Shown piece after piece: positions 1,469-21,766 of a stretch of DNA of 22,531 nucleotides. Under the pieces are notes generated by a model. The model saw nothing but the letters and a program-made list of their open reading frames with translations. It had not been told where the DNA came from and did no database searches. Within the stretch, counting starts at the first letter, position 1; every line of letters begins with the position of its first letter. The position numbers and the translations under genes are program-made. Location of the stretch: the IMG/VR virus record IMGVR_UViG_2778261509_000018. One strand, 5' to 3'. Source of the DNA: a virus. Lineage: Duplodnaviria; Heunggongvirae; Uroviricota; Caudoviricetes.

Positions 1469-2677
1469 CTATGATAGTTCAGCGTAAAGTTCTATCAGCT
1501 CAGTAATGAATGCTCCGAGCGTTATTAATTCTTCTCTAACTGCTTCTGGGTATTTTTTATGTAAAGTTGATGGTACAACGAGTCTGACACCCGCATCTTT
1601 CATTTCTCGGTATTGTGCTGAAGAAACACCTTCTTGCAGCGTAAATAAATGTACCTGATGGATTTTATCTGCTTCATTCAGTATCTGACGCCAGCGATCT
1701 TTGCAGGTGGTCTTTACTGCCAGCATACGTAAGTTTTCTACAGGAAATTCAACGTCATGATATGCCTCTGCTGAAGGAAACAGGAAATCTGGTTTTTTAT
1801 TACCTTCAGTAACTGCCTGAGTGGAGAAATGTCGTAGTCCGTGCTCGATAAAAAGCTTCTCTAGGTGAAGTTCAAGTGATTTACCTGCCCTTGATTTACG
1901 TCGATTACTGACAGAGTTGGCTAATGCAATAAACTCATCTACAGAATTGAATCCTTTCTTAATAATATCAATAACATGTAATTCCTCGACGAGTAGAAAA
2001 ATATCATACTCGACACGCCGACGGTCAATCAGTTGCTCATCTGGATCCTTGGAGTTTTTAGCATAATGGCCAGCAGCATATTGAATAATTTCGTTTCCAG
2101 AAGGAAAACGCTTCTTCCAGTCTTCAGGAATAACATATTTATGATTTACTGGAGTTTGCTGAAGAGGCAATCCGCCCAAAATTTGTCCGGCAGGGCCGGA
2201 AATTAGGGTTCCAGGTATGATTTCGCCAATAGCAGACTCGATGATATCCTCTTCATCGGGATTGACGCAGACCCATATATCTACCTCGGAACAGTCAGTG
2301 TTCTGTTCGTTTAACCTGAAAGCAAGAATTGTGAGGGCTCCTGTATTTTCAGAGTTCTGTAATGGACTTCCTCTCCCCCAGCGCGTAATTCTTTTTTCGT
2401 TTCGGGTCTTACCAAAATAACGGTTGTTGTAATAAATTGCGCGTGCTTGGGTATCAGGGCAATCATGGGATGATACATGCGCAGTAAGGAAGACTGAAGG
2501 GTTCAGTTCGCGAGTATGATTGATAGAAGGAAAAAGCTTTTCAACGATATTTGAGGGGATATAAAGTCCGACCTGATGGCCACCTGTTGCGCCTGTGTCG
2601 TTTGCAGAAAGGCGTTTGATGTAGATAAAGTAATTCCCGCTTGCGATATCAAGCAGCCAGTTATGAAAAACCGACAT
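1469..2677 (-). CDS. ecoRIIR: Type IIE restriction endonuclease, EcoRII family (CCWGG-specific; N-terminal effector DNA-binding domain plus C-terminal catalytic domain)
   Basis: Translation (MSVFHNWLL...KRLSANDTGATGGHQVGLYIP...) closely matches R.EcoRII as I recall it. Convergent with the cognate MTase. Start placed at the second ATG (2675-2677), which has an AAGGG Shine-Dalgarno 6 nt upstream; the first in-frame ATG at 2681-2683 would give 404 aa. Confidence 0.88.
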   Translation of the reverse strand: MSVFHNWLLDIASGNYFIYIKRLSANDTGATGGHQVGLYIPSNIVEKLFPSINHTRELNPSVFLTAHVSSHDCPDTQARAIYYNNRYFGKTRNEKRITRWGRGSPLQNSENTGALTILAFRLNEQNTDCSEVDIWVCVNPDEEDIIESAIGEIIPGTLISGPAGQILGGLPLQQTPVNHKYVIPEDWKKRFPSGNEIIQYAAGHYAKNSKDPDEQLIDRRRVEYDIFLLVEELHVIDIIKKGFNSVDEFIALANSVSNRRKSRAGKSLELHLEKLFIEHGLRHFSTQAVTEGNKKPDFLFPSAEAYHDVEFPVENLRMLAVKTTCKDRWRQILNEADKIHQVHLFTLQEGVSSAQYREMKDAGVRLVVPSTLHKKYPEAVREELITLGAFITELIELYAELS

Positions 2678-2760
2678 ATACATCCCTTTGTTAACATACA
2701 GTCAGGGTTAACATTTTTCCATAGTTATAGATAAGCGGCTAGGAACTTAAGGGAAAAACA

Positions 2761-5309: not shown

Positions 5310-5355
5310 ATTCGTAATGCGAAGGTCGTAGGTTCGACTCCTATTATCGGCACCA
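5310..5355 (+). other. 3' fragment (about 46 nt) of tRNA-Thr(CGU) (thrW-type) ending in CCA; attachment-site core, not an intact tRNA
   Basis: ATTCGTAATGCGAAGGTCGTAGGTTCGACTCCTATTATCGGCACCA matches the anticodon loop to 3' end of tRNA-Thr(CGU) as I recall it. The upstream sequence lacks the GCCGATA acceptor 5' strand and D-arm, so no cloverleaf can form. Confidence 0.7.
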
Positions 5356-5372
5356 TTCAAACATCTCCCCAA

Positions 5373-5466: not shown

Positions 5467-5520
5467 GATGGGGGTACTTATGGGGGTATTTGCTGTTCGG
5501 TTTAGTGGAGGTACCCCCAA

Positions 5521-6735
5521 GTGAAACTCAATGCCCGTCAAATAGACACAGCCAAGCCAAAAGAGAAGGCTTACAAGCTGGCCGATGGTGGCGGTTTGTA
5601 TCTCTTGGTAAAACCTAATGGAGGTAAATACTGGCGACTTAAATATCGTGTAGCTGGTAAAGAGAAGCTATTGGCACTAGGTGTTTATCCTGAGGTTACT
5701 CTAGCCGATGCTCGGGCAAAACGTGAAGATGCGAAAAGAGGTATCGCTGGTGGTATCGATCCGATGGAAGCGAAACGAGAGGAAAAGATTGCCCGGGAAA
5801 CGCAGTTAAACAACACCTTCAAAGATATTGCCCTTGAGTGGCACAGCAGCAAATTAAAAAAATGGTCTGCTGGTTATGCTTCAGACATCCTCGAAGCCTT
5901 CAACAAAGATGTGTTCCCTTACATTGGCAAAAAACCCATCGCCGAAATCAAACCACTTGAACTTCTGAATGTGCTGCGTCGCATCGAGGGGCGCGGTGCT
6001 ACAGAAAAAGCTAAAAAAGTGAGGCAACGGTGCGGGGAAGTTTTCCGCTATGCAATAGTCACTGGTCGCGCAGAGTATAACCCTGCACCAGACCTTACTA
6101 GCGCGATGCAAGGCCATGAATCTAATCATTACCCTTTCCTTACAGCCAAAGAATTACCTGATTTTTTCAAGGCATTGTCCAGTTACTCAGGAAGCGCATT
6201 GGTTGTTATGGCGGCTCGTCTACTGATTATCACCGGCTTGCGGACTGGCGAACTACGTGGCGCATTATGGGATGAAATTGATTTCAACAAGGCTATCTGG
6301 GAGATACCCGCTTCACGTATGAAAATGCGGCGGCCTCATATTGTGCCATTGTCTGAGCAGGCTCTTTCGCTTATTGGGAAGATTAGAGAAATAACAGGCA
6401 ATTACCCTCTTATGTTTCCCGGGCGCAATGATCCAAGGAAAACAATGAGCGAGGCCAGCATAAACCAAGTGTTTAAGCGCATTGGCTACGCTGGACGTGT
6501 AACTGGTCATGGGTTCCGGCACACTATGAGTACGATTTTGCATGAGCAGGGCTATAACACCGCGTGGATAGAAACGCAGCTCGCTCACGTTGATAAGAAC
6601 TCAATTCGTGGCACATACAACCATGCGCAATATCTGGATGGAAGGCGGGAGATGCTTCAATGGTATGCCGACTATATGGATTCTCTCGAGCATGACGGAA
6701 ATGTGGTGCATATGGTGTTTGAAAAACACGCATGA
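5521..6735 (+). CDS. Site-specific tyrosine integrase, P4 (IntA/IntS-like) family
   Basis: N-terminus AKPKEKAYKLADGGGLYLLVKPNGGKYWRLKYR is typical of P4-type integrases; catalytic-region motifs LRTGELR, HGFRHT and a C-terminal Tyr (RGTYNHAQY); GTG start with GGAGG 10 nt upstream; sits immediately 3' of the tRNA fragment. Confidence 0.93.
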   Translation: MKLNARQIDTAKPKEKAYKLADGGGLYLLVKPNGGKYWRLKYRVAGKEKLLALGVYPEVTLADARAKREDAKRGIAGGIDPMEAKREEKIARETQLNNTFKDIALEWHSSKLKKWSAGYASDILEAFNKDVFPYIGKKPIAEIKPLELLNVLRRIEGRGATEKAKKVRQRCGEVFRYAIVTGRAEYNPAPDLTSAMQGHESNHYPFLTAKELPDFFKALSSYSGSALVVMAARLLIITGLRTGELRGALWDEIDFNKAIWEIPASRMKMRRPHIVPLSEQALSLIGKIREITGNYPLMFPGRNDPRKTMSEASINQVFKRIGYAGRVTGHGFRHTMSTILHEQGYNTAWIETQLAHVDKNSIRGTYNHAQYLDGRREMLQWYADYMDSLEHDGNVVHMVFEKHA

Positions 6736-8819: not shown

Positions 8820-9841
8820 CCGTCCAGAAGAAGACATTTTCACTGGCTGGTATGTCGCCAAAATCCAGCAATATGACAGCAAAGTCAGGCATTAATACAG
8901 CAGATACAAGCAAAGTTTATCATTTGCTGGTGGTAGGAGCGGATGCCTTAACTATGTCAGAAATTACGGTCGATGGTGTTAGCGTTGAGAAGGTCAGCGG
9001 CTGCGCCAGAGAATTTCTGGTCGTAGATCACCTGTTCTGCTCGTGTAGTGACTCCACAAAAACATTCGTCCACGTGCGTGACGTTAACGAAATGAGCGCG
9101 ATGTATTGTGCATCTGGTGCTTCCAATAGTGAGTTTTCGGAGTCCATAAAAAAGAGCTTGCCGTTATGCGGCAACACGGTTTATGGTTATAAGGCACCTC
9201 ATAAAACGGGTGCCGGGATTAGGACCCCGCAGGCAATCGAGGCGATACATGACGCGCCAGCGTCTTTTTTTGTATCGGCGCACACGCACACCTTATCAAT
9301 GGTGGGCTGTATGGGGCTGACTTCGGTCAGGCTGGTTTCCTTGATTGCCAGTAGTCCTAACCCTGTACAGTCCACCGCCAGCGAGCTTAGGACCTCCGGC
9401 GGTGGCTATAAACCATCAATCAAGGAGGCTGCCACATGCTGGCTACTACCCCTACCCAAAAACCGCAATTTATCTGGATTATCGCCGCAGTTCGCCGCGA
9501 TTGCCCGACAATTACCGCCAAAATTCATCATATTGCTGCCGAGTCTGAACGCGATGCTCGCCGTTCTCTGGTGCGCGATCACGTCTGCTTTTTTGCTGGT
9601 CGTATCCGCATGGAGGTGGCACATGATTAAAACCTACGATGTGCATATGGATCCCCTCGAACGCACAAGCCAGATCATCACACTGACAGAAGTGATTAAC
9701 GACATTCTGGTGAGCAACTCTCCCTCACGAGACGAAAGGCTGAAGGCGTTACTCGCGATATTGGATCTCGCCGTTCGTGACGTTCATTTCCTGCTGGAAG
9801 GTGGACAAATGCCAGTAAAAACGGGGGCAACCAATGAATAA
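8813..9841 (+). CDS. Uncertain long ORF (342 aa, Cys/Ser-rich); possibly two genes read through (8813 to about 9430, and 9623-9841, 72 aa)
   Basis: Open frame with ATG overlapping the previous stop (ATGCTAA); completely overlaps the Icd-like ORF in another frame; internal ATG at 9623 overlaps the Icd-like stop (ATGATTAA). Confidence 0.25.
9436..9630 (+). CDS. Host cell division inhibitor Icd-like small protein (64 aa)
   Basis: Strong Shine-Dalgarno AAGGAGG at 9422-9428, 7 nt before the ATG; sequence ([17 protein letters not shown]...) resembles Icd-like proteins of P4-like elements as I recall them. Confidence 0.4.
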   Translation: MLATTPTQKPQFIWIIAAVRRDCPTITAKIHHIAAESERDARRSLVRDHVCFFAGRIRMEVAHD

Positions 9842-11113: not shown

Positions 11114-13465
11114 ATGCGAAACATTGATCTTATCCGTCAGGTTATCAGTGCGTCTGAAAACAACTGGCCTCATGTGCTGGGCTGCCTGAACATAAATGTC
11201 CCTGACTCTCCGCGCCGTCATGCTCCCTGCCCTGCATGTGGGGGCAAAGATCGATTCCGGTTCGATGACAACGGGCGCGGTAGCTTCATCTGTAATCAGT
11301 GCGGCGCTGGTGATGGGCTGGATTTAATTAAACGCGTAAATAACTGCGACACAACAGAGGCGGCGCTTCTTGCCGCTGATGTTCTGGGTATTGATTACCG
11401 GACAACGGAAACACCAGAAGCCACCAGCCAGAAACGGGAACAACTGGAAACCGAGCGCCAGCGACGCGAACAGGAGCGCCTGAAAAGGGCAGAGAAGGAC
11501 GAACAACAAAGACGGGATACGTTTTCCCGTCAGTTTGATGACATGCGCAGAAAGGCTGTAAACGGCAAATCTGATTATCTGGTTGCGAAAGGGGTAGGTG
11601 ATTTTACATTCCCCGTGTTGCCCGATGGATCTCTGTTGCTGGCGCTGGTGGATAAATCCGGCGCAGTCACAGCAGCACAGACTATTACCCCACATGGTGA
11701 AAAAAGACTCCTGACAGGTTCGGCAAAGCGGGGGGCATATCACGCCATAAACGCACAGAAACGACCTCACAGCATCATAATTGCTGAGGGGGTGGCTACC
11801 GCCCTGTCGTGCCATTTAATTCGCCCTGACGCAATGACAGTGGCAGCAATCGACGCTGGCAACCTGTTGCCAGTAGCGGAAGTCATGCGCAGAACATATC
11901 CGCAGGCACAAATAATCATTGCCGCAGATAACGATCACCAGCAAGGAGACTCAGAAAGTGGAGGGATCAACACGGGGAAAGATGCCGCAGAGAGGGCCGC
12001 TATTTCCGTAGCTGGCAGGGTGTCTCTGCCACCGACTGACTATAAAGCCGACTGGAACGACTATCACCAACAACACGGGCTGGCGGCAGCCACAGCAGCA
12101 TTTAAAGATTCGATGTACCAGCCACGGGGGAAAGGGGCGCAGGTGAAAAATCACAAACAGTCAGTCGGGGCGCTGAATGAGATCAGTTCTGGCGAGGTGT
12201 TAAGCGATGATGAAATTGCTGTCCTCGAAGAAATCAACCGGACGTTTACGCATGTCACCATCGGCGGGAAACACAAGGTGGTGTCGCTAAAGCCTTCTCA
12301 AACCGGCGGTGTATCGCACGTTTTCGAGGATTTATCACAATTTCAGCATTATTTTCATCATAAACCGAGAGTCGCCAGAAAGCTGGCGGGATCGGCGTGG
12401 CTGTCATGGAGTGGGAAGAACTACAAGCCAGGAGGCGTAGGATTTTATCCAGTACCAGACAAATGCCCTGACGATGTTTTTAATCTGTATGAGGGGCTGG
12501 CACTGGAACCAATTGAAGGAGATTGCACGGTATACCTTAATCACCTGTTGCAGGTTGTCTGTGCCGGTAATGAAGAGGCATGCCAATATCTTATCCAGTG
12601 GATGGCGCACATTATCCAAAAGCCTGATGAAAAACCGTCCGTGGCAATCGTGATGAAATCTGTCCCGGGCACAGGGAAAGGCACAACGGTTAAACCGCTG
12701 CTGCAAATACTGGGGCAGTACGCCGCCCACATTAACGGGGCGGGACATATTTCAGGGCGCTTCAATTCAATACTTGCTAACAAGCTACTGGTATTTGCTG
12801 ACGAAGTGACGATCCACAAGCCGTCTGAAGCTGACAGACTTAAAGCGATTATTAGCGAACCGACGTTTAACCTTGAGCGCAAGGGAATTGATGCTGAACC
12901 AATGCCGAATTTTGCCCGGTTGATATTTGCCAGTAACAGCACACAGGTATTACAGGCAGGGATAAGAGAGCGTCGCTATCTCGTGCTTGAGCCATCTCCT
13001 GAAAAAGCACAGAGCCGGGAGTATTTTGATCGGCTGTACAGTTGGCTTAATGATGGCGGTGCCGCAAAGTTGCTTTGGCATCTTAAAGGGGTGGATCTCT
13101 CAGGTTTTGACCCTCAACGAGCGCCACAGACCGATGCCTTACGTGAAGAAATCTTGCTGGGGCTGTCTGGCGTTGAATTGTTTCTTTATGGCGAGCTAAT
13201 CAATGAACCTCCGTTTAATGGCGAAGTCCGTTTGTTTGCAAAGGATATGGTTAGTCGGTTTGTAGCGTGGTCGCTTGAGCGTGGGGAAAAGCTTAAAGAA
13301 CCAGCTGCCAGATCACTACTGGGTAAATCACTTGCACAAATGGGGCTGGTGAAGCATGGAAGACCAGACCGAGGGAATGGCGTGTTCTACGAACTACCAG
13401 AGGTCGGAGTTCTACAGGCTGCGTTTGCCCGTCTGATCGGTATGGGGGGTTATGATGTTTTTTAA
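11114..13465 (+). CDS. P4 alpha-type replication protein: zinc-binding primase (Toprim) fused to a D5-like helicase domain
   Basis: Zn-ribbon CPACGG...CNQCG near the N-terminus, Toprim-like IIIAEGVATALS and DNDHQ, Walker A VPGTGKGT and Walker B-like LLVFADE in the C-terminal half; 783 aa; downstream of int/alpA as in P4-like elements. Confidence 0.9.
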   Translation: MRNIDLIRQVISASENNWPHVLGCLNINVPDSPRRHAPCPACGGKDRFRFDDNGRGSFICNQCGAGDGLDLIKRVNNCDTTEAALLAADVLGIDYRTTETPEATSQKREQLETERQRREQERLKRAEKDEQQRRDTFSRQFDDMRRKAVNGKSDYLVAKGVGDFTFPVLPDGSLLLALVDKSGAVTAAQTITPHGEKRLLTGSAKRGAYHAINAQKRPHSIIIAEGVATALSCHLIRPDAMTVAAIDAGNLLPVAEVMRRTYPQAQIIIAADNDHQQGDSESGGINTGKDAAERAAISVAGRVSLPPTDYKADWNDYHQQHGLAAATAAFKDSMYQPRGKGAQVKNHKQSVGALNEISSGEVLSDDEIAVLEEINRTFTHVTIGGKHKVVSLKPSQTGGVSHVFEDLSQFQHYFHHKPRVARKLAGSAWLSWSGKNYKPGGVGFYPVPDKCPDDVFNLYEGLALEPIEGDCTVYLNHLLQVVCAGNEEACQYLIQWMAHIIQKPDEKPSVAIVMKSVPGTGKGTTVKPLLQILGQYAAHINGAGHISGRFNSILANKLLVFADEVTIHKPSEADRLKAIISEPTFNLERKGIDAEPMPNFARLIFASNSTQVLQAGIRERRYLVLEPSPEKAQSREYFDRLYSWLNDGGAAKLLWHLKGVDLSGFDPQRAPQTDALREEILLGLSGVELFLYGELINEPPFNGEVRLFAKDMVSRFVAWSLERGEKLKEPAARSLLGKSLAQMGLVKHGRPDRGNGVFYELPEVGVLQAAFARLIGMGGYDVF

Positions 13466-13494
13466 TATAGTCTTTTTACAAGAAGATCGTTTTT

Positions 13495-13598
13495 ACCTGT
13501 ACCACCTATACCACTTTGCTAATTCAGTATTAAAAACAATGTGTTATAGTGGTACAGGTCAATATCTTACCTATACCAGACCTGTACCACCTATACCA
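13495..13598. repeat. Iteron cluster 1: repeated CCTRTACCA 9-mers (within ACCTGTACCACCTATACCA units) in both orientations; candidate replication origin
   Basis: Direct units at 13495-13513 and 13580-13598, a partial unit at 13568-13578, and an inverted TGGTACAGGT at 13550-13559; immediately 3' of the primase-helicase gene. Confidence 0.5.
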
Positions 13599-13641
13599 TT
13601 AACAAACGCATTTCTTCTGGCTGGCTGAGAGGGAACAGCCA

Positions 13642-13872
13642 ATGATGAGCACACCATTTTACAAAGTGCGCCAGTTAGCTTCTTCCTCTGGCTGGCAGCT
13701 ACGGTTTGAGGGGCGTTCAGACTGGCTACCCATTGCGGCATGGGCGAATGTTGAAATGTGTATTGACGGCGATACCGTTGAAATCATTATTCCCTGCGTG
13801 GCAAGTCGGGACGGCTGTATAGAGCCAACAGATATGGCAGCAGAAATCAGAGAGGTAAAACATGAACAATAA
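13642..13872 (+). CDS. Small hypothetical protein (76 aa)
   Basis: ORF between the two iteron clusters; weak GAGGG Shine-Dalgarno; overlaps the start of the next ORF. Confidence 0.4.
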   Translation: MMSTPFYKVRQLASSSGWQLRFEGRSDWLPIAAWANVEMCIDGDTVEIIIPCVASRDGCIEPTDMAAEIREVKHEQ

Positions 13873-14599
13873 CTATTGCATACCGCAGGGAATGACCAGA
13901 ACGGAGCGCGAAGAATTAAAAAGTTTCGCTACACAGTGCGGGAATGCTGGCGACATCCAAAGTCTGGAACGCACTTTAATTATGATTGCGCACTGGATGC
14001 GTCAGGGGCAAAGGGTTTCATTTACTGAATATGCCAGCCAGTGGACAGAGGCACAGCGCGAACGGAGCGACGGTAATCACTCAACACCCGAAATGGCGAA
14101 GCAATGGCCTTTCAGTGGTAAACGCTGTATCAGTCCCGGTGGTTCAGATTATTACCCTGCTGGTGTGGGAGATGAGCCATGTTGTGACGAGACTGAAATC
14201 CGCCACGCAGTGACAGTAATTACCGCTGAATACCCACAATTTAACCTTGACGGACTGGCGCTCCACAACCGGAATGCGGACTGGGAAAACCCGCTTGATA
14301 ACCCGTCATTTATCGTATCGGCGAAAAGCTGCCTGAGATGGATCAGAGACAACGGGATGAGTAATGCCCAGATTGAGAGCTTCCCGCAGGATAACCCCAC
14401 ATCTGACACGTTGAAGCATGAAGTGGAGCGATATAACCAGATAAACCACCAGCACAGTGATCACCCGCACTATATCCCCAACGGAGCATTTATTGCGGCG
14501 ATGGTGGCAAGCGGCTACAAGGTTAAGCCAGCGGGAAGAATGAACGCATTTTTCAATATTTCAAAAAAAGGATTATGTGCTGCTATGGGTAAAAATTAA
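13862..14599 (+). CDS. Hypothetical protein (245 aa)
   Basis: Uninterrupted ORF with start overlapping the previous gene; no motif recognised. Confidence 0.55.
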   Translation: MNNNYCIPQGMTRTEREELKSFATQCGNAGDIQSLERTLIMIAHWMRQGQRVSFTEYASQWTEAQRERSDGNHSTPEMAKQWPFSGKRCISPGGSDYYPAGVGDEPCCDETEIRHAVTVITAEYPQFNLDGLALHNRNADWENPLDNPSFIVSAKSCLRWIRDNGMSNAQIESFPQDNPTSDTLKHEVERYNQINHQHSDHPHYIPNGAFIAAMVASGYKVKPAGRMNAFFNISKKGLCAAMGKN

Positions 14600-14605
14600 A
14601 TAAAT

Positions 14606-14709
14606 GGTACAGGTCTGTACAGGTGGGGAGAGGTCATTTTTACCCACCTGTACCACCTGCAGGCCGCGCTACACAAGGGTTTGTGACATGGTGGTACAGG
14701 TGGTACAGC
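14606..14709. repeat. Iteron cluster 2: TGGTACAGG / CCTGTACCA copies in both orientations
   Basis: TGGTACAGG at 14606-14614, CTGTACAGG at 14617-14625, CCTGTACCA at 14648-14656, tandem TGGTACAGG-TGGTACAG at 14693-14709; same 9-mer family as cluster 1, about 1.05 kb away. Confidence 0.5.
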
Positions 14710-15073
14710 AAAAACAGCGATTTTCTTTATAAGGTATGTTTTGCTCATCTGGCAGACGGAGGTATTCGCTGCGGTTTGGCACGTAGCCCAGAACAGCAAA
14801 GAGTTTTACGAGACTTTTGTAAAATCCAGTGTACAAGGGCGTGACGTTTTTGAAGGAGAGACCTACGAAATTTTCGTAGTTCAAAAAATAGCCTCTGAGA
14901 TGTTGTTATGCCTGTTCAGCAAACCATCCGCATAGCTGATCGCGAATCAAATTACCAATGGAGCCAGAAGCAAGGGCAGAACTGGAAAGCGCCTGCCGTG
15001 AAGAGTAATGCGACATCATAAATATAGTTTTTAGAGTCCATAAAAAACCTGTCAAAACCTGACATACAGAACG

Positions 15074-15107
15074 ATGCCACCAGCTACTGAGCGGTGGCAT
15101 TTTTTTG
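15074..15107 (+). terminator. Strong rho-independent terminator (ATGCCACC-N11-GGTGGCAT followed by T7)
   Basis: Perfect 8-bp GC-rich stem plus a run of seven T; ends an about 400-bp stretch with no convincing ORF. Confidence 0.6.
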
Positions 15108-15140
15108 TGCTATTTGTTTCATATTTTGCAATCACAATGA

Positions 15141-15176
15141 TGAATGTTGCGTTTTGTGAAACTATAATGACTGTTG
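15141..15176 (+). promoter_or_regulatory. Candidate promoter for the 15202-18951 operon (-10 TATAAT at 15164-15169)
   Basis: Consensus -10 hexamer about 35 nt upstream of the first ORF start; the -35 element is weak. Confidence 0.3.
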
Positions 15177-15201
15177 TTTTATACAGTTCTAAGGGGACGT
15201 T

Positions 15202-15375
15202 ATGGCTATTTCAGTAAAGCCAGTATTGATAAGTGAGAAGCAAATGGAAGCGATAAAGAAAATTCAGGAGGAGCAGCGTAAAAAATCAGAGGTAGGAGTT
15301 GCGCCAACGATCCACGAAATTGCTCGGGGATTAATGGATAAGGCGCTGGCTTACACTTTAACTGGACGTGGGTAA
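15202..15375 (+). CDS. Small hypothetical protein (57 aa), first gene of the cargo operon
   Basis: Not in the ORF track (below its size cutoff); AAGGGGA Shine-Dalgarno 5 nt upstream of the ATG; its stop is 4 nt before the next start; possible small DNA-binding or regulatory protein. Confidence 0.4.
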   Translation: MAISVKPVLISEKQMEAIKKIQEEQRKKSEVGVAPTIHEIARGLMDKALAYTLTGRG

Positions 15376-15379
15376 ATTT

Positions 15380-16846
15380 ATGGCTACTTGGCAACAAGGA
15401 ATCAACTCAGGCGGTTTTCTGGCTGGCATCGGTACGCAAAACGAGAATGCGCCAAAGGCAAGCGACATTAACGCAACGCTTGGTCTGATCCGCGAAAACA
15501 ATGAACTGGCTCGCTCAGGTGCAAATAACGTTGCTCTGACAGGTCTTCGTGGTCTGGCTGGAGTTGCTGATATTTATAAGCAGCAGCAACAGCAGGAGCG
15601 TAAAGCGGCATTCCAGAAAGGTTATGCAGATGCTTATGCGTCCGGTGACAGGGAGCAGATGCGTAATCTTATTACAGCATTCCCAGAAGAGTTTGAGGAA
15701 GTCCGTAAAGGGATGAGTTATGTCGATGATGCTCAAAGGGATGATTATGGCAATCTGGCGCTCAAAGCACAGGTAGCCTCATCGCTTGGTCCGGGCGCAT
15801 TTGGCAGGTTCATGATGGATAATGAGCAGGAGATGCGTCGTTTAGGTATCCCTCCAGAAACTATTGCTGAAATGCAGGTTAATGACCCGCAGGGCTTCCA
15901 GCATTTCGCAGGTAATCTGGCGCTGTTTTCTCTCGGTCATGAGAAGTATTTCGATATCAAAGATCAAATGGAAGGTCGGGATATTGAGCGTGGCAAGTTG
16001 GCAGAGACAATCCGCAGCAATCAGGCTGGCGAAGCACTTCAGGCGAGAGGGCAGGATATTAGCCGAGCAAATGCGTTAACGTCAGCATATGCACCAACAG
16101 CAGCAATGCAGAATTACAATCAGTACGCGCAAATGTTAAAGGCGGATCCAGAGGGGGCGGCGGCATTTGCGGCAGCGGCTGGAATTAATACAAACGCCAA
16201 AAAATTAATGAGTGTTAGAGAAAACGATGATGGCACTGTCACAAAATACTACACAGACGGAAGTGAAGAGCAGGGAAAACTAAACCAGCCAATATCTGGA
16301 GATGGGTTTCGTCCAATAGCTTTGCCAACAGCCCAAAAGATCATGGAAAAGTCGCCAGAAGGGGCTAAAAAAGCTGCTGGATTTGCATACAGGGTTAGGG
16401 ATGCTCTTGATTCAATAGATACACTGAAAGACCAGCTTAGCCCACAGCGAGTGGCGATCATTAATAATGCTTTGGGTAATGGGACGCTGGCTAACTTAAC
16501 GCTCAGCCCAGCAGAGCAGCAATACGTTGTTAATGCTAATGACGCAATAATGGCAATACTCCGTCAGGAAACAGGGGCATCTATCCTACCAGCTGAAATG
16601 TCCAAATATTATCAAATGTATTTCCCTCAGCCTGGTGATTCCACAAAAACCATTGATACCAAGCGCCGGAAGATGGAAAACCAGTTCAATTCGCTGAAAG
16701 CTGCTTCTGGTCGAACTTATGATGCTTTGCGGGTTATTTCAGCAGTTGACAGAGGAACTGCTTCTTCGTCGCAGACATTGCCGCAATCTGAGCAGGTATC
16801 ACAGCCAGCAGCCAGCAGTAACTTTTCTTCACTATGGGGTGATTAA
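15380..16846 (+). CDS. Hypothetical Ala/Gln-rich protein (488 aa)
   Basis: Long ORF, start taken at the ATG at 15380 (the track's GTG at 15368 is less likely); stop overlaps the next start (TAATG); composition suggests a largely helical protein; no enzymatic motif recognised. Confidence 0.7.
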   Translation: MATWQQGINSGGFLAGIGTQNENAPKASDINATLGLIRENNELARSGANNVALTGLRGLAGVADIYKQQQQQERKAAFQKGYADAYASGDREQMRNLITAFPEEFEEVRKGMSYVDDAQRDDYGNLALKAQVASSLGPGAFGRFMMDNEQEMRRLGIPPETIAEMQVNDPQGFQHFAGNLALFSLGHEKYFDIKDQMEGRDIERGKLAETIRSNQAGEALQARGQDISRANALTSAYAPTAAMQNYNQYAQMLKADPEGAAAFAAAAGINTNAKKLMSVRENDDGTVTKYYTDGSEEQGKLNQPISGDGFRPIALPTAQKIMEKSPEGAKKAAGFAYRVRDALDSIDTLKDQLSPQRVAIINNALGNGTLANLTLSPAEQQYVVNANDAIMAILRQETGASILPAEMSKYYQMYFPQPGDSTKTIDTKRRKMENQFNSLKAASGRTYDALRVISAVDRGTASSSQTLPQSEQVSQPAASSNFSSLWGD

Positions 16847-18951
16847 TGGCTAAAGCATGGAAAGATGTTATCGCCTCTCCACAGTATCAGGCGTTAGCAC
16901 CAGAACAAAAAGCGCAGGCTCAGGAGCAATACTTCAATGAAGTCGTTGCCCCGAAAGCCGGAGAAAGTGTAGAGCAGGCTAAGCAGGCTTTTTATGCTGC
17001 CTATCCACTACCATCAACGAATGCAATAGACCGATCCCAATCAGCAACTCAAAATATTCAACATACATCATCTGATAATTCTCTTGCGTCAGGGTATGCA
17101 AAGTTAGCTACTCAGCAAAGAGAGGGGCTTGAGCGTTCAGCAGAACAGGGAGCCAGTCTTGGGGCTGCGATGCGCGATGCTATAACAGGCGAAAGCCGAA
17201 TGACTCCAGAGATGGAGAGACTGCAAAATGTCGCCTCTGCCCCAGAATTGAACTCACTAAGCATGGATGCCCTAAAGGCTGGATGGTCTCAACTTTTCGG
17301 CTCTGACGCGTCTCAGGAAAAGATTCTTCAGGGAATGGGGGCGACATTAAGGCAGGATGAGAAGGGGAATACTATCGTTTCTCTGCCATCAGGTGATTAT
17401 GCCCTGAACAAGCCGGGTTTATCACCGCAAGACCTGACCTCGTTTCTTGCTAATGCGTTGGCGTTTACACCAGCGGGCAGGGCCGGAACGGTGCTGGGGG
17501 CCATAGGAAAATCAGCAGCTACAGATTTAGCACTACAGGGAGCCACCAGCCTTGCTGGTGGAGAAGATATTGATCCGTTACAAACGGTAATTTCTGCTGG
17601 CATTGGTGGTATTGGTAAGGGGCTGGAAAATACAGCGAGTGCGGTTTCGAGGGCTGTTCGTGGTGATATGTCGCCTGAAGCAAAGGCTGCTGTCGACTTT
17701 GCATCGGAAAGAAATCTGCCGTTAATGACCAGTGACATGCTGAAAGATAAAACCTTTATGCAGAGTCAGGCTCAGACATTAGGCGAAAGAGTTCCTTTTT
17801 TTGGAACCGGTAAGAATCGGCTGAATCAACAACAAGCACGAGAAAATTTAGTCAGAACATTTAGCGATGGTCTGGGTGGCATTTCTGATAAACAGCTTTA
17901 TGAATCTGCGACTAAAGGGCAACAAAAATTCATTGAGGCAGCAGGAAAGCGATATAACCGCATAATTGACGCTATGGGGGATACCCCTGTCGATCTCTCA
18001 AACACGGTAAAAGCTATCGACAATCAGATTGCCGTGTTAAGCCGCCCGGGCAAATCTCAGGATAGAGCCGCGGTAAAAGTCTTGCAGCAATTTAAAGACG
18101 ATATCACCAGCGGACCAAATGACCTGCGTCTGGCGAGGGAAAACAGAACCGATCTTCGAAAGCGATTTATGGCGTCATCTGACACTGTTGATAAAGATAC
18201 GCTCCAGAAAGCCAGCGATATTATCTACAAGGCATATACGGCGGATATGAAAAAAGCCGTAGCCAAAAATCTTGGAGCAGACGAAGCCATTAATATGGCA
18301 AGGGTTGATCGCTCATGGTCTAAATTCAATGACATGATGGGAAGAACGCGCGTTCAAAAGGCAATAGCCAGCGGCAAGGCCACGCCTGAGGATGTAACAA
18401 AACTCGTTTTTAGCCAAAGCCCATCAGAACGTTCTCAGCTTTACAGGCTTCTGGATGACAATGGTAGGCAAAACGCACGAGCAGCCATAGTTCAGAATGC
18501 TGTAGATAAGGCGACTGATCCGTCTGGAAATATCAGTGTTGAGAAGTTTATTAATGCGTTACACCGGAACAGGAAGCAATCAGCAACTTTCTTTAAAGGC
18601 GTACATGGAAAGGAACTGGACGGCGTTATTAAATACCTCAACGATACAAGACACGCGGCAAAAGCGAACGTTCAAAACTTAAATGGTCAGCAGCTTTATG
18701 GATTGTTAGTTGGTGGTGGCATCATAAACGCAGCAGTATTAGCGGGGATGCTAAAAACGGCTGCGTTTGTTGTTCCTGCTGCTGGTGCCGTAGGCGGAGC
18801 AGCGAAGGCATACGAAAGCCCTGTTATACGAAATGCCTTGTTACGTCTGGCAAATACGCCAAAAGGTAGCACAGCATATGACAGAGCGATCAGTACGGTC
18901 ACACAATCGCTCACCAGAGTCGCACAGGCATCACAAAAAGAATCTCAATAA
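16846..18951 (+). CDS. Hypothetical Ala/Gly-rich protein (701 aa) with a C-terminal glycine-zipper hydrophobic hairpin; candidate membrane-inserting effector
   Basis: C-terminal segment LYGLLVGGGIINAAVLAGMLKTAAFVVPAAGAVGGAAKAY is about 37 mostly apolar residues with a central Lys, about 45 residues from the C-terminus; the rest is hydrophilic and A/Q/G-rich. Confidence 0.7.
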   Translation: MAKAWKDVIASPQYQALAPEQKAQAQEQYFNEVVAPKAGESVEQAKQAFYAAYPLPSTNAIDRSQSATQNIQHTSSDNSLASGYAKLATQQREGLERSAEQGASLGAAMRDAITGESRMTPEMERLQNVASAPELNSLSMDALKAGWSQLFGSDASQEKILQGMGATLRQDEKGNTIVSLPSGDYALNKPGLSPQDLTSFLANALAFTPAGRAGTVLGAIGKSAATDLALQGATSLAGGEDIDPLQTVISAGIGGIGKGLENTASAVSRAVRGDMSPEAKAAVDFASERNLPLMTSDMLKDKTFMQSQAQTLGERVPFFGTGKNRLNQQQARENLVRTFSDGLGGISDKQLYESATKGQQKFIEAAGKRYNRIIDAMGDTPVDLSNTVKAIDNQIAVLSRPGKSQDRAAVKVLQQFKDDITSGPNDLRLARENRTDLRKRFMASSDTVDKDTLQKASDIIYKAYTADMKKAVAKNLGADEAINMARVDRSWSKFNDMMGRTRVQKAIASGKATPEDVTKLVFSQSPSERSQLYRLLDDNGRQNARAAIVQNAVDKATDPSGNISVEKFINALHRNRKQSATFFKGVHGKELDGVIKYLNDTRHAAKANVQNLNGQQLYGLLVGGGIINAAVLAGMLKTAAFVVPAAGAVGGAAKAYESPVIRNALLRLANTPKGSTAYDRAISTVTQSLTRVAQASQKESQ

Positions 18952-21662: not shown

Positions 21663-21766
21663 CGCTCAAATATCAGCCAGAAAATAACGGACCAATCACA
21701 AAGCTATCGCTGTGTTGTTGGTTCAGAGCTGGGCTGTGTTGGTTCAAAATAATCTGAGAGGCAGAA

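Follow-up and report, generated by a model that had tools for sequence, protein, structure and literature searches.

Replication origins of phage-inducible chromosomal islands (PICIs) and of Staphylococcus aureus pathogenicity islands (SaPIs) are defined by their place directly 3' of rep and by an AT-rich region that has iterons on either side (PMC6092414, PMC9371898). In the Escherichia coli island EcCICFT073, the pri-rep-ori segment sustains plasmid maintenance and deletion of ori abolishes it, and the organisation of the PICI origin has been called unlike that of any other known replicon (PMC6092414). Here we describe two clusters of a 9-bp iteron, CCTRTACCA, in a 22,531-nucleotide stretch of DNA assigned to the Caudoviricetes (IMG/VR record IMGVR_UViG_2778261509_000018; the whole stretch is referred to below as the window). 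The clusters follow the gene for a 783-amino-acid (aa) primase-helicase, Pri-Rep, and they are very likely to be cognate Rep-binding origin elements of an integrated satellite island of the PICI/P4-like type. This assessment draws on sequence comparison, namely on motif enrichment, module architecture, conservation across hosts, a layout that matches those of P4 ori and EcCICFT073, and co-inheritance of iteron and Rep. An earlier note on this DNA had proposed that the two clusters are ori/crr-like cis sites for the adjacent primase-helicase, and the layout and comparative evidence presented below support that proposal.

In phage P4, one alpha protein that is primase, helicase and origin-binding protein at once acts on two separate clusters of the same iteron, as known from the work of Ziegelin, Lanka, Calendar and co-workers. 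The P4 ori (NC_001609) spans 104 bp and has a T-rich leader, two copies of TGTTCACC, a 35-nt AT-rich spacer (GC 0.17), one inverted copy, 14 nt and three further copies. With (+) for iterons oriented like the rep gene and (-) for inverted ones, P4 crr comprises two 120-bp direct repeats directly downstream of alpha, each of which ends in (+), 35 nt, (-)(-); the P4 record annotates crr as a region required in cis for replication. The EcCICFT073 origin has two copies of CTGTCTACC, a 39-nt AT-rich spacer, one inverted copy, 12 nt and three direct copies, after which comes an inverted second module. In SaPIs (Ubeda et al.; Qiao et al. 2022, PMC9371898), the C-terminal winged-helix domain of a helicase initiator recognises iterons immediately downstream of rep, which are split by a central AT-rich region and have opposite orientations on its two sides; a primase is sometimes fused to Rep.

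Anatomy of the two iteron modules

Nine exact matches to CCTRTACCA occur on the two strands of the window, compared with 0.23 expected (sd 0.49, maximum 2) from 100 dinucleotide-preserving shuffles. Six are at 13496-13598, in orientations + + - + + +, and three at 14605-14700, in orientations - + -; none lies outside the two clusters. When one mismatch is allowed, a tenth site appears at 14701-14709 (GCTGTACCA, (-)), and the window total rises to 18 against 5.75 expected, with the remaining eight scattered at about background level. An eleventh, degenerate copy on the minus strand (CCACCTGTAC, 14617-14626) keeps the extended repeat register (family D15) and brings the iteron total to 11, nine exact and two degenerate, the latter both in cluster 2. 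An unbiased scan of the window for 8-mers present at least three times within 110 bp returned only the two clusters and one GGGGGTA triplet. In two island-bearing E. coli loci (~58 kb in all), the 8-mer CTRTACCA has a density of only about one per 10 kb beyond the clusters. The earlier note had reported at least ten copies in two clusters (13495-13598 and 14606-14709) and essentially none elsewhere in the window, and had named a count across the window as a check on this; the count confirms the enrichment, the absence and, to within 1 nt, the coordinates.

Each cluster is a module of ~105 bp in which two tandem iterons, a 36-nt spacer and one inverted iteron are followed by two to three tandem iterons. 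The features of the segment are listed here in window coordinates.

11114-13465, + strand: Pri-Rep, 783 aa, presumed initiator, identified by its Pfam domains
12136-14799, + strand: putative replication-specificity cassette, with the Pri-Rep helicase and winged-helix half, module A, ORF76, ORF245 and module B; delimited by blastn against sister island L030
13076-13462, + strand: C-terminal 129 aa of Pri-Rep (aa ~655-783), predicted winged-helix, candidate iteron-binding domain
13450-13495, no strand: AT-rich leader of module A, ..TTTTTAATATAGTCTTTTTACAAGAAGATCGTTTTTAC, GC 0.25-0.30, overlapping the last codons and the stop codon of Pri-Rep
13496-13513, + strand: left pair of module A, CCTGTACCA and CCTATACCA, with a 9-bp period; columns conserved in an alignment of 14 module A copies
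13514-13549, no strand: 36-nt spacer of module A, GC 0.25, candidate DNA-unwinding site
13550-13558, - strand: inverted iteron of module A, TGGTACAGG on the + strand; conserved across loci as TGGTAcAG
13570-13598, + strand: right triplet of module A, CCTATACCA, CCTGTACCA and CCTATACCA; conserved in the module A alignment
13642-13872, + strand: ORF76, a conserved small protein found between modules A and B wherever these are split
13862-14599, + strand: ORF245, a conserved protein associated with PICI replication modules, with homologues near PICI origins
14605-14626, - strand: proximal sites of module B, TGGTACAGG (14605-14613) and the degenerate GTACAGGTGG (14617-14626); families D3 and D15
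14647-14655, + strand: single opposite-orientation iteron of module B, CCTGTACCA, an exact match
14656-14691, no strand: 36-nt GC-rich spacer of module B, CCTGCAGGCCGCGCTACACAAGGGTTTGTGACATGG, GC 0.61
14692-14709, - strand: distal pair of module B, TGGTACAGG and TGGTACAGC, an exact and a one-mismatch match

Module A (cluster 1, 13496-13598, 103 bp) begins 30 nt past the Pri-Rep stop codon (13463-13465) and reads two direct iterons, 36 nt of AT-rich DNA, one inverted iteron, 11 nt and three direct iterons. Module B (cluster 2, 14605-14709) starts 6 nt past the stop codon of ORF245. Read on the minus strand, it has an A/T-rich leader, two tandem iterons, a 36-nt spacer and one inverted iteron, followed by ~20 nt, a degenerate iteron and a good one; because this order repeats that of module A, the modules share a single design in opposite orientations. 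At their outer ends, 13491-13514 pairs with 14691-14714 as a 24-nt inverted repeat (I1) of 88% complementarity, and the 1006-bp gap between the modules holds ORF76 and ORF245. The module A spacer has a nearest-neighbour stability of -39.1 kcal/mol, at the 99.2nd percentile of the least stable 36-mers of the window, and corresponds to the 35-nt spacer of P4 ori and the 39-nt one of EcCICFT073; the module A leader holds the least stable 36-mers of the interval 13300-15400. Equivalent T-rich leaders occur in P4 ori and in other modules, and an A-rich leader, AAAAACAGCGATTTTC, mirrors that of module A after the distal pair of module B. The module B spacer falls at the 5th percentile of the same ranking, close to its most stable end. 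Neither a sigma-70-like promoter nor an intrinsic terminator was predicted inside either module when both were scanned for.

The locus shares with PICI and SaPI origins its position 3' of the initiator and the opposite orientation of iterons around an AT-rich spacer. The closest family is the PICI origin (PMC6092414), not P4 itself. EcCICFT073 has the same design of module A plus inverted module B and a shared motif in the module B spacer, and the same module layout recurs in the published PICI EcCIRM13514 and in island L031, which makes this design the standard E. coli PICI origin; the window differs from it by its 1006-bp split. EcCICFT073 differs from the window in its iteron (CTGTCTACC versus CCTRTACCA), in having adjacent modules where the window has two open reading frames between modules 1006 bp apart, and in its Rep; the window Rep combines a Zn-ribbon/Toprim primase, a DUF5906 helicase and a novel predicted winged-helix C-terminus. 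SaPI origins belong to a Staphylococcus lineage, have iterons of 5-6 nt compared with 9 nt in the window, and no separated second module has been described for them.

The likeness to P4 is close at the level of single modules. Module A has the layout, rep-relative orientation, length (103 versus 104 bp) and T-rich leader of P4 ori, and module B shares with a crr unit its inverted orientation and its (+) - 35/36 nt - (-)(-) end. The arrangement differs: in P4 it is crr that adjoins alpha, with ori upstream of the operon at a distance of 4.7 kb, whereas in the window the ori-like module adjoins rep and the crr-like module, 1 kb from it, is single rather than two repeats. The spacers differ as well, being AT-rich in crr and GC-rich in module B, and the P4 iteron, TGTTCACC, has 0 copies in the window. 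Taken side by side, the published PICI origin and P4 ori/crr show one shared module design. E. coli PICIs were already known to have iteron origins 3' of pri-rep, as P4 was to have its ori/crr pair, and the locus is not a new type of system; it adds a Rep allele and iteron outside the three compared published alleles (CFT073, 042 and RM13514), and an A/B layout whose split places it between those of PICI and P4.

Conservation of the modules and their pairing with Rep

A search with a Pri-Rep profile against one genome per species yielded 24 loci. Downstream of homologues of the helicase/C-terminal half, CTGTACCA ranks first among 8-mers in Buttiauxella, Xenorhabdus, Moellerella, Methylobacter and Methylomonas; in Pantoea it recurs along with CTATACCA. 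The homologous Reps are 49-76% identical across the matched region. Remoter homologues are accompanied by related 9-bp-periodic arrays, with CTGTTCCA in Sansalvadorimonas and ACCTRTNCC in Alteromonadales. Both modules were found in 16 loci; when 14 module A and 13 module B copies are aligned, the iteron columns are conserved and the spacers are divergent.

The distance between the modules varies from ~0-60 bp (L010, L011, L014-L019) through ~300 bp (Xenorhabdus) to ~1 kb (the window and Buttiauxella L003). The description of the clusters in the earlier note as flanking a two-gene block therefore holds for the window but not as a defining feature, since the modules of relatives are adjacent or ~300 bp apart. 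In Xenorhabdus ehlersii (L004), module A (1683-1790) lies between AntA and Ash, 2.3 kb upstream of the primase gene, and module B (6620-6725) is still downstream of that gene, after an ORF76 homologue; to judge from the sequence, this is a natural P4-like arrangement of the origin halves. Pantoea L008 has module A only, with no module B found at that locus. A decayed island in E. coli 2011EL-1370-2 (L037, 3344-5458), in which the primase-helicase is reduced to 259 aa by an internal deletion, retains both iteron clusters, ORF76 and ORF245 at 99.4% identity. H48 was considered as a recombinant that would place specificity in the last ~200 aa and was rejected, being merely an internal deletion derivative.

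In Pri-Rep, Pfam recognises Zn_Ribbon_Prim at aa 34-69, Toprim_3 at aa 221-322 and the SF3 P-loop core of DUF5906 at aa 515-614. Only aa 7-337 align with P4 alpha by BLASTP (33% identity, E 1e-40), with which an hhalign profile comparison agrees. Pfam finds in Pri-Rep neither D5_N nor Pox_D5, both of which P4 alpha has, and Pox_D5 covers the C-terminal origin-binding region of alpha. The P4-family primase C-terminal model TIGR01613 gives Pri-Rep only 19.3 bits against a cut-off of 108.7, and the P4 alpha chain is absent from the sequence and fold matches of Pri-Rep; a PDB sequence search instead matches aa 473-654 to the helicase domain of the NrS-1 primase. Because only the primase aligns and the alpha C-terminal domains are absent, the helicase/DNA-binding half belongs to a different lineage, and Pri-Rep is alpha-like in its domain order and primase only. 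The term alpha-type primase-helicase used in the earlier note is thus apt for the homologous N-terminal Zn-ribbon/Toprim primase (33%) and inapt for the rest, which is without D5_N and Pox_D5. Fillol-Salom et al. describe four Pri-Rep alleles of E. coli PICIs, and identity of the window Pri-Rep with three of them is rejected, as the CFT073, 042 and RM13514 Reps are different proteins; BLASTP detects no similarity of Pri-Rep to the Reps of EcCICFT073, EcCI042 and EcCIRM13514.

Sister islands provide natural domain swaps. Two E. coli islands, L029 and L030, share their flanking genes with the window and have a primase N-terminus that is 85% identical, together with a DUF927 C-terminal half and the iteron TGAACCAAC. 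Two others, L031 and L032, have a D5_N/Pox_D5 half, the iteron TATCCCTAC and a module A plus inverted module B. No CTGTACCA is present in sister loci with a DUF927 or a D5_N/Pox_D5 half, and the iterons of P4/EcCIRM13514, L031 and EcCICFT073 have 0 copies in the window. In a blastn comparison of the window with L030, homology (93.5%) extends as far as 12135 (codon ~341) and is found again (96%) from 14800 onwards; relative to the sister islands, the cassette at 12136-14799 is exchanged as one block. The same replicon also occurs behind different integrases, at thrW in strain LA3 and at yicC-dinD in strain SF-166, which makes the iterons independent of the integrase. The loci with adjacent modules (L010, L011, L014-L019) keep CTGTACCA-type iterons without ORF76 or ORF245, and both proteins are thereby excluded as the binder. 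These natural swaps indicate that iteron type tracks the helicase/C-terminal half of Rep. It does not go with the type of primase domain or of integrase, with the genes nearby or with the two open reading frames between the modules. They support, on comparative grounds, the suggestion of the earlier note that the different iteron reflects a distinct specificity of this Rep. Two copies of the DUF927-type iteron TGAACCAAC do occur in the window, at 21717 and 21738 (- strand), 21 bp apart and just upstream of PerC; they could be due to chance or be a remnant.

A further exchange is seen in EcCIRM13514 (L033, E. coli RM13514). Its Rep is 49% identical to residues 301-771 of P4 alpha, has no alpha-type primase and has no similarity to the window Pri-Rep, and its origin (L033 ~9068-9290) carries the type-1 iteron of P4 itself, TGTTCACC, in the A plus inverted-B layout. 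The occurrence of the P4 iteron together with an alpha-like helicase half in this island implies that PICI and P4 replicons exchange modules. Outside islands, the 7.6-kb Vibrio vulnificus plasmid pMP1 (NC_012758) encodes a homologue that matches 93% of the helicase and winged-helix half at 34% identity. This homologue is the only replication-type gene annotated on the plasmid, and immediately after it 9-bp-periodic iterons, TTTCCACNT, flank an AT-rich stretch, although the pMP1 origin is itself a prediction. The plasmid differs in its iteron and gene context, and no Zn-ribbon/Toprim domain is annotated; the homologue and its iterons nevertheless show that this class of Rep goes with an autonomous replicon.

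Through these comparisons a satellite-island replicon of E. coli, its Enterobacterales relatives and beyond gains a concrete candidate origin and a predicted determinant of specificity. Sequence alone could then sort such islands into incompatibility or specificity groups, each given by a Rep C-terminal half and its iteron, and the natural domain swaps between sister islands are ready-made constructs for work on origin recognition and loading by SF3 primase-helicases.

Proposed mechanism and alternative readings

The mechanism reportedly established for P4 alpha by Ziegelin and Lanka offers one analogy for events at this locus. The other is the SaPI Rep (PMC9371898). After induction and excision, Pri-Rep would bind the 9-bp iterons through its C-terminal winged-helix domain and self-assemble as an SF3 hexamer at module A, where the 36-nt AT-rich spacer and the leader would melt. 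The Toprim primase domain would then lay primers, and host polymerase III would perform theta replication. Module B, which is adjacent to module A in most relatives and would here have been displaced by 1 kb through ORF76 and ORF245, may act as a second cis Rep-binding array of opposite polarity, with a spacer that is not easily melted. It might load an oppositely oriented second hexamer for bidirectional replication, or it might take part in Rep-mediated looping to module A, as P4 crr does with ori, and serve as an enhancer or in copy-number control. Any specific role given to module B has roughly equal chances of being right or wrong.

A narrower reading takes only cluster 1 as the origin and regards cluster 2 as a non-functional or redundant relic, stranded by insertion of ORF76 and ORF245. 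Module A alone fits the published definition of PICI and SaPI origins, module B is poorer in perfect iterons (three exact, one with one mismatch and one degenerate), and the Pantoea locus shows module A only. We nevertheless consider a relic unlikely: the iteron sequence, iteron number and 36-nt spacing of module B are conserved in 13 loci from several genera, whatever the distance between the modules, and X. ehlersii keeps module B downstream even though its module A has come to lie upstream of the gene. Moreover, module B is inside the block that is exchanged along with the Rep C-terminal half, and the annotation of P4 crr as required in cis weighs against dispensability of its counterpart here.

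It is very improbable that the iterons are mainly transcriptional operators, bound by Pri-Rep or another island protein to control ORF76, ORF245 and downstream genes, and are not needed for replication initiation. The two clusters do lie between genes, one on each side of a two-gene unit, and iteron-binding initiators of iteron plasmids commonly autoregulate. A regulatory side role of the iterons may exist. A primarily regulatory function would sit poorly with the lack of any predicted promoter or terminator in the clusters, with most relatives having no gene between the modules, with a layout that matches the functionally defined origins P4 ori and EcCICFT073, and with module A being centred on the most easily melted DNA of the region. 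The 24-nt inverted repeat formed by the outer module ends around the two open reading frames might alternatively mark the clusters as terminal inverted repeats or recombination sites of an ORF76-ORF245 cassette, a proposal that can be grouped with integrase arm sites or packaging sites and that we find scarcely credible. In L010, L011, L014-L019, L031, EcCICFT073 and EcCIRM13514 the same inverted modules abut without any intervening gene, and ORF245 is outside the module pair in Xenorhabdus. As to arm sites, the clusters are ~8 kb from the integrase gene and from the attachment (att) remnant at 5310-5356, and one replicon is found with two different integrases, at thrW and yicC-dinD. Origin elements bound by the adjacent Rep remain the preferred reading of both clusters.

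The spacer of module B has a feature of its own. Its motif CTGNAGGCCGCGCYA recurs in the module B spacers of L011, L017, L031 and EcCICFT073, in the last of these as CTGAAAGCCGCGCCA. The consensus CTG[AC]A[AG]GCCGCGC[CT]A, in most cases with a short hairpin after it, is present in module B spacers despite the unrelated Reps and iterons of the window, L031 and EcCICFT073 (window 14656-14691; L034 7183; L031 5664; L011 6656; L017 5513). A near-identical 11-mer occurs within the AntA gene on the opposite strand (window ~8112, - strand), and P4 (L002) has near matches to the motif at 11549 and 7073.

A more tentative proposal is that PICI origins and P4 ori/crr could be a single bipartite design, made of a melting forward module and an inverted auxiliary one, whose halves can be separated by anything from 0 bp to several kb. 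The present locus would be an intermediate in which the gap captured ORF76, which might regulate or bridge the halves, and the GC-rich module B motif CTGNAGGCCGCGCYA with its hairpin might be a Rep-independent recognition element, such as a host-factor or priming site. Specialist attention is merited by the GC-rich spacer motif and by ORF76 as a gene specific to split origins.

Embedded genes and the surrounding island

Homologues of ORF76 (tblastn, 41-74% identity) are found at the same position in Buttiauxella L003 and in six Xenorhabdus loci, and Pantoea L008 has one downstream of module A; tblastn finds none in loci with adjacent modules. The protein alignment has 23 invariant columns, and ORF76 is, on this conservation, taken to be a real protein. 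Its fold is probably all-beta according to an AlphaFold2 model of low confidence (pLDDT 63). Pfam, PHROG, NCBIfam and PDB gave no usable match, and a database search gave 12 homologues, none informatively named.

ORF245 homologues lie between modules A and B in L003 and after module B in Xenorhabdus L004 and L006. In a capsid-forming PICI of E. coli Br_190_kylling (L027), which encodes a RepA-family helicase and has AAAGTGGGGA iterons in both orientations after rep (5680-5880), an ORF245 homologue (66% identity over 237 aa) directly follows the iteron origin and is itself followed by single-stranded DNA-binding protein (SSB) and ProQ/FinO genes. ORF245 therefore seems to be a recurrent gene placed after the origin, with no family match above noise in Pfam, PHROG, NCBIfam or PDB. 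Together, ORF76 and ORF245 look like accessories of the replication module.

The window corresponds to an E. coli chromosomal island that is present in 143 of 5426 complete genomes (~2.6%), almost always at an identity of at least 97%. Its genes encode a tyrosine integrase, AlpA (PF05930, 7e-20), AntA, DUF4222, Ash, an Icd-like protein, several small open reading frames and the primase-helicase, and beyond the two clusters P22-type ejection proteins, Abi_2 and PerC; the + strand carries the majority of them. This matches the gene organisation defined for Gram-negative PICIs by Fillol-Salom et al. (2018; PMC6092414), with which the island shares the tyrosine integrase, AlpA, rightward and nearly unidirectional genes, PerC, and an att site at thrW or yicC-dinD. 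It differs in its size of ~17-18 kb, compared with 8-12 kb for the PICI examples of PMC6092414, and in its P22-type ejection-protein genes. These are two large genes of P22 gp16/gp20 DNA-ejection type at 15368-18951 (+; PF16928 7e-85; PHROG 'DNA transfer protein' 4e-163), and the same genes occur in sister islands with other replicons. The island is without virion genes other than this pair, which is odd cargo for a satellite. No sid, delta, psu or epsilon was found in Pfam and PHROG scans of 24 window open reading frames, a search that did not extend to smaller frames or to cos.

The left att is a 47-nt remnant of the 3' end of a tRNA-Thr gene (5310-5356), and no complete tRNA occurs in the window. 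Upstream of it is an EcoRII-type restriction-modification pair, with a C5 methyltransferase at 1-1434 and the EcoRII endonuclease at 1469-2683 (-); the pair and the att remnant suggest two islands in tandem at thrW. The integrase gene starts at 5521, and the three copies of GGGGGTA/TACCCCC that directly precede it within 50 bp (5469-5519) probably serve the integrase as arm sites or are operators. Rfam gives gathering-level matches to isrK at 9194-9270 (63 bits) and to C4 antisense RNA at 9295-9382 (80 bits), both on the + strand and within a mechanically called 342-aa 'Ash' open reading frame. This frame is probably not one gene, because RefSeq annotates a truncated ash pseudogene and icd in strain LA3. 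The isrK and C4 matches, together with AntA and the Icd-like gene annotated in the corresponding LA3 region, resemble the immI module of P1 or the CI RNA immunity module of P4. In the 600-bp non-coding stretch past cluster 2, a terminator-like hairpin with a T-run (15083-15098, +) precedes a 57-aa open reading frame; the sister islands L029 and L030 have kept it.

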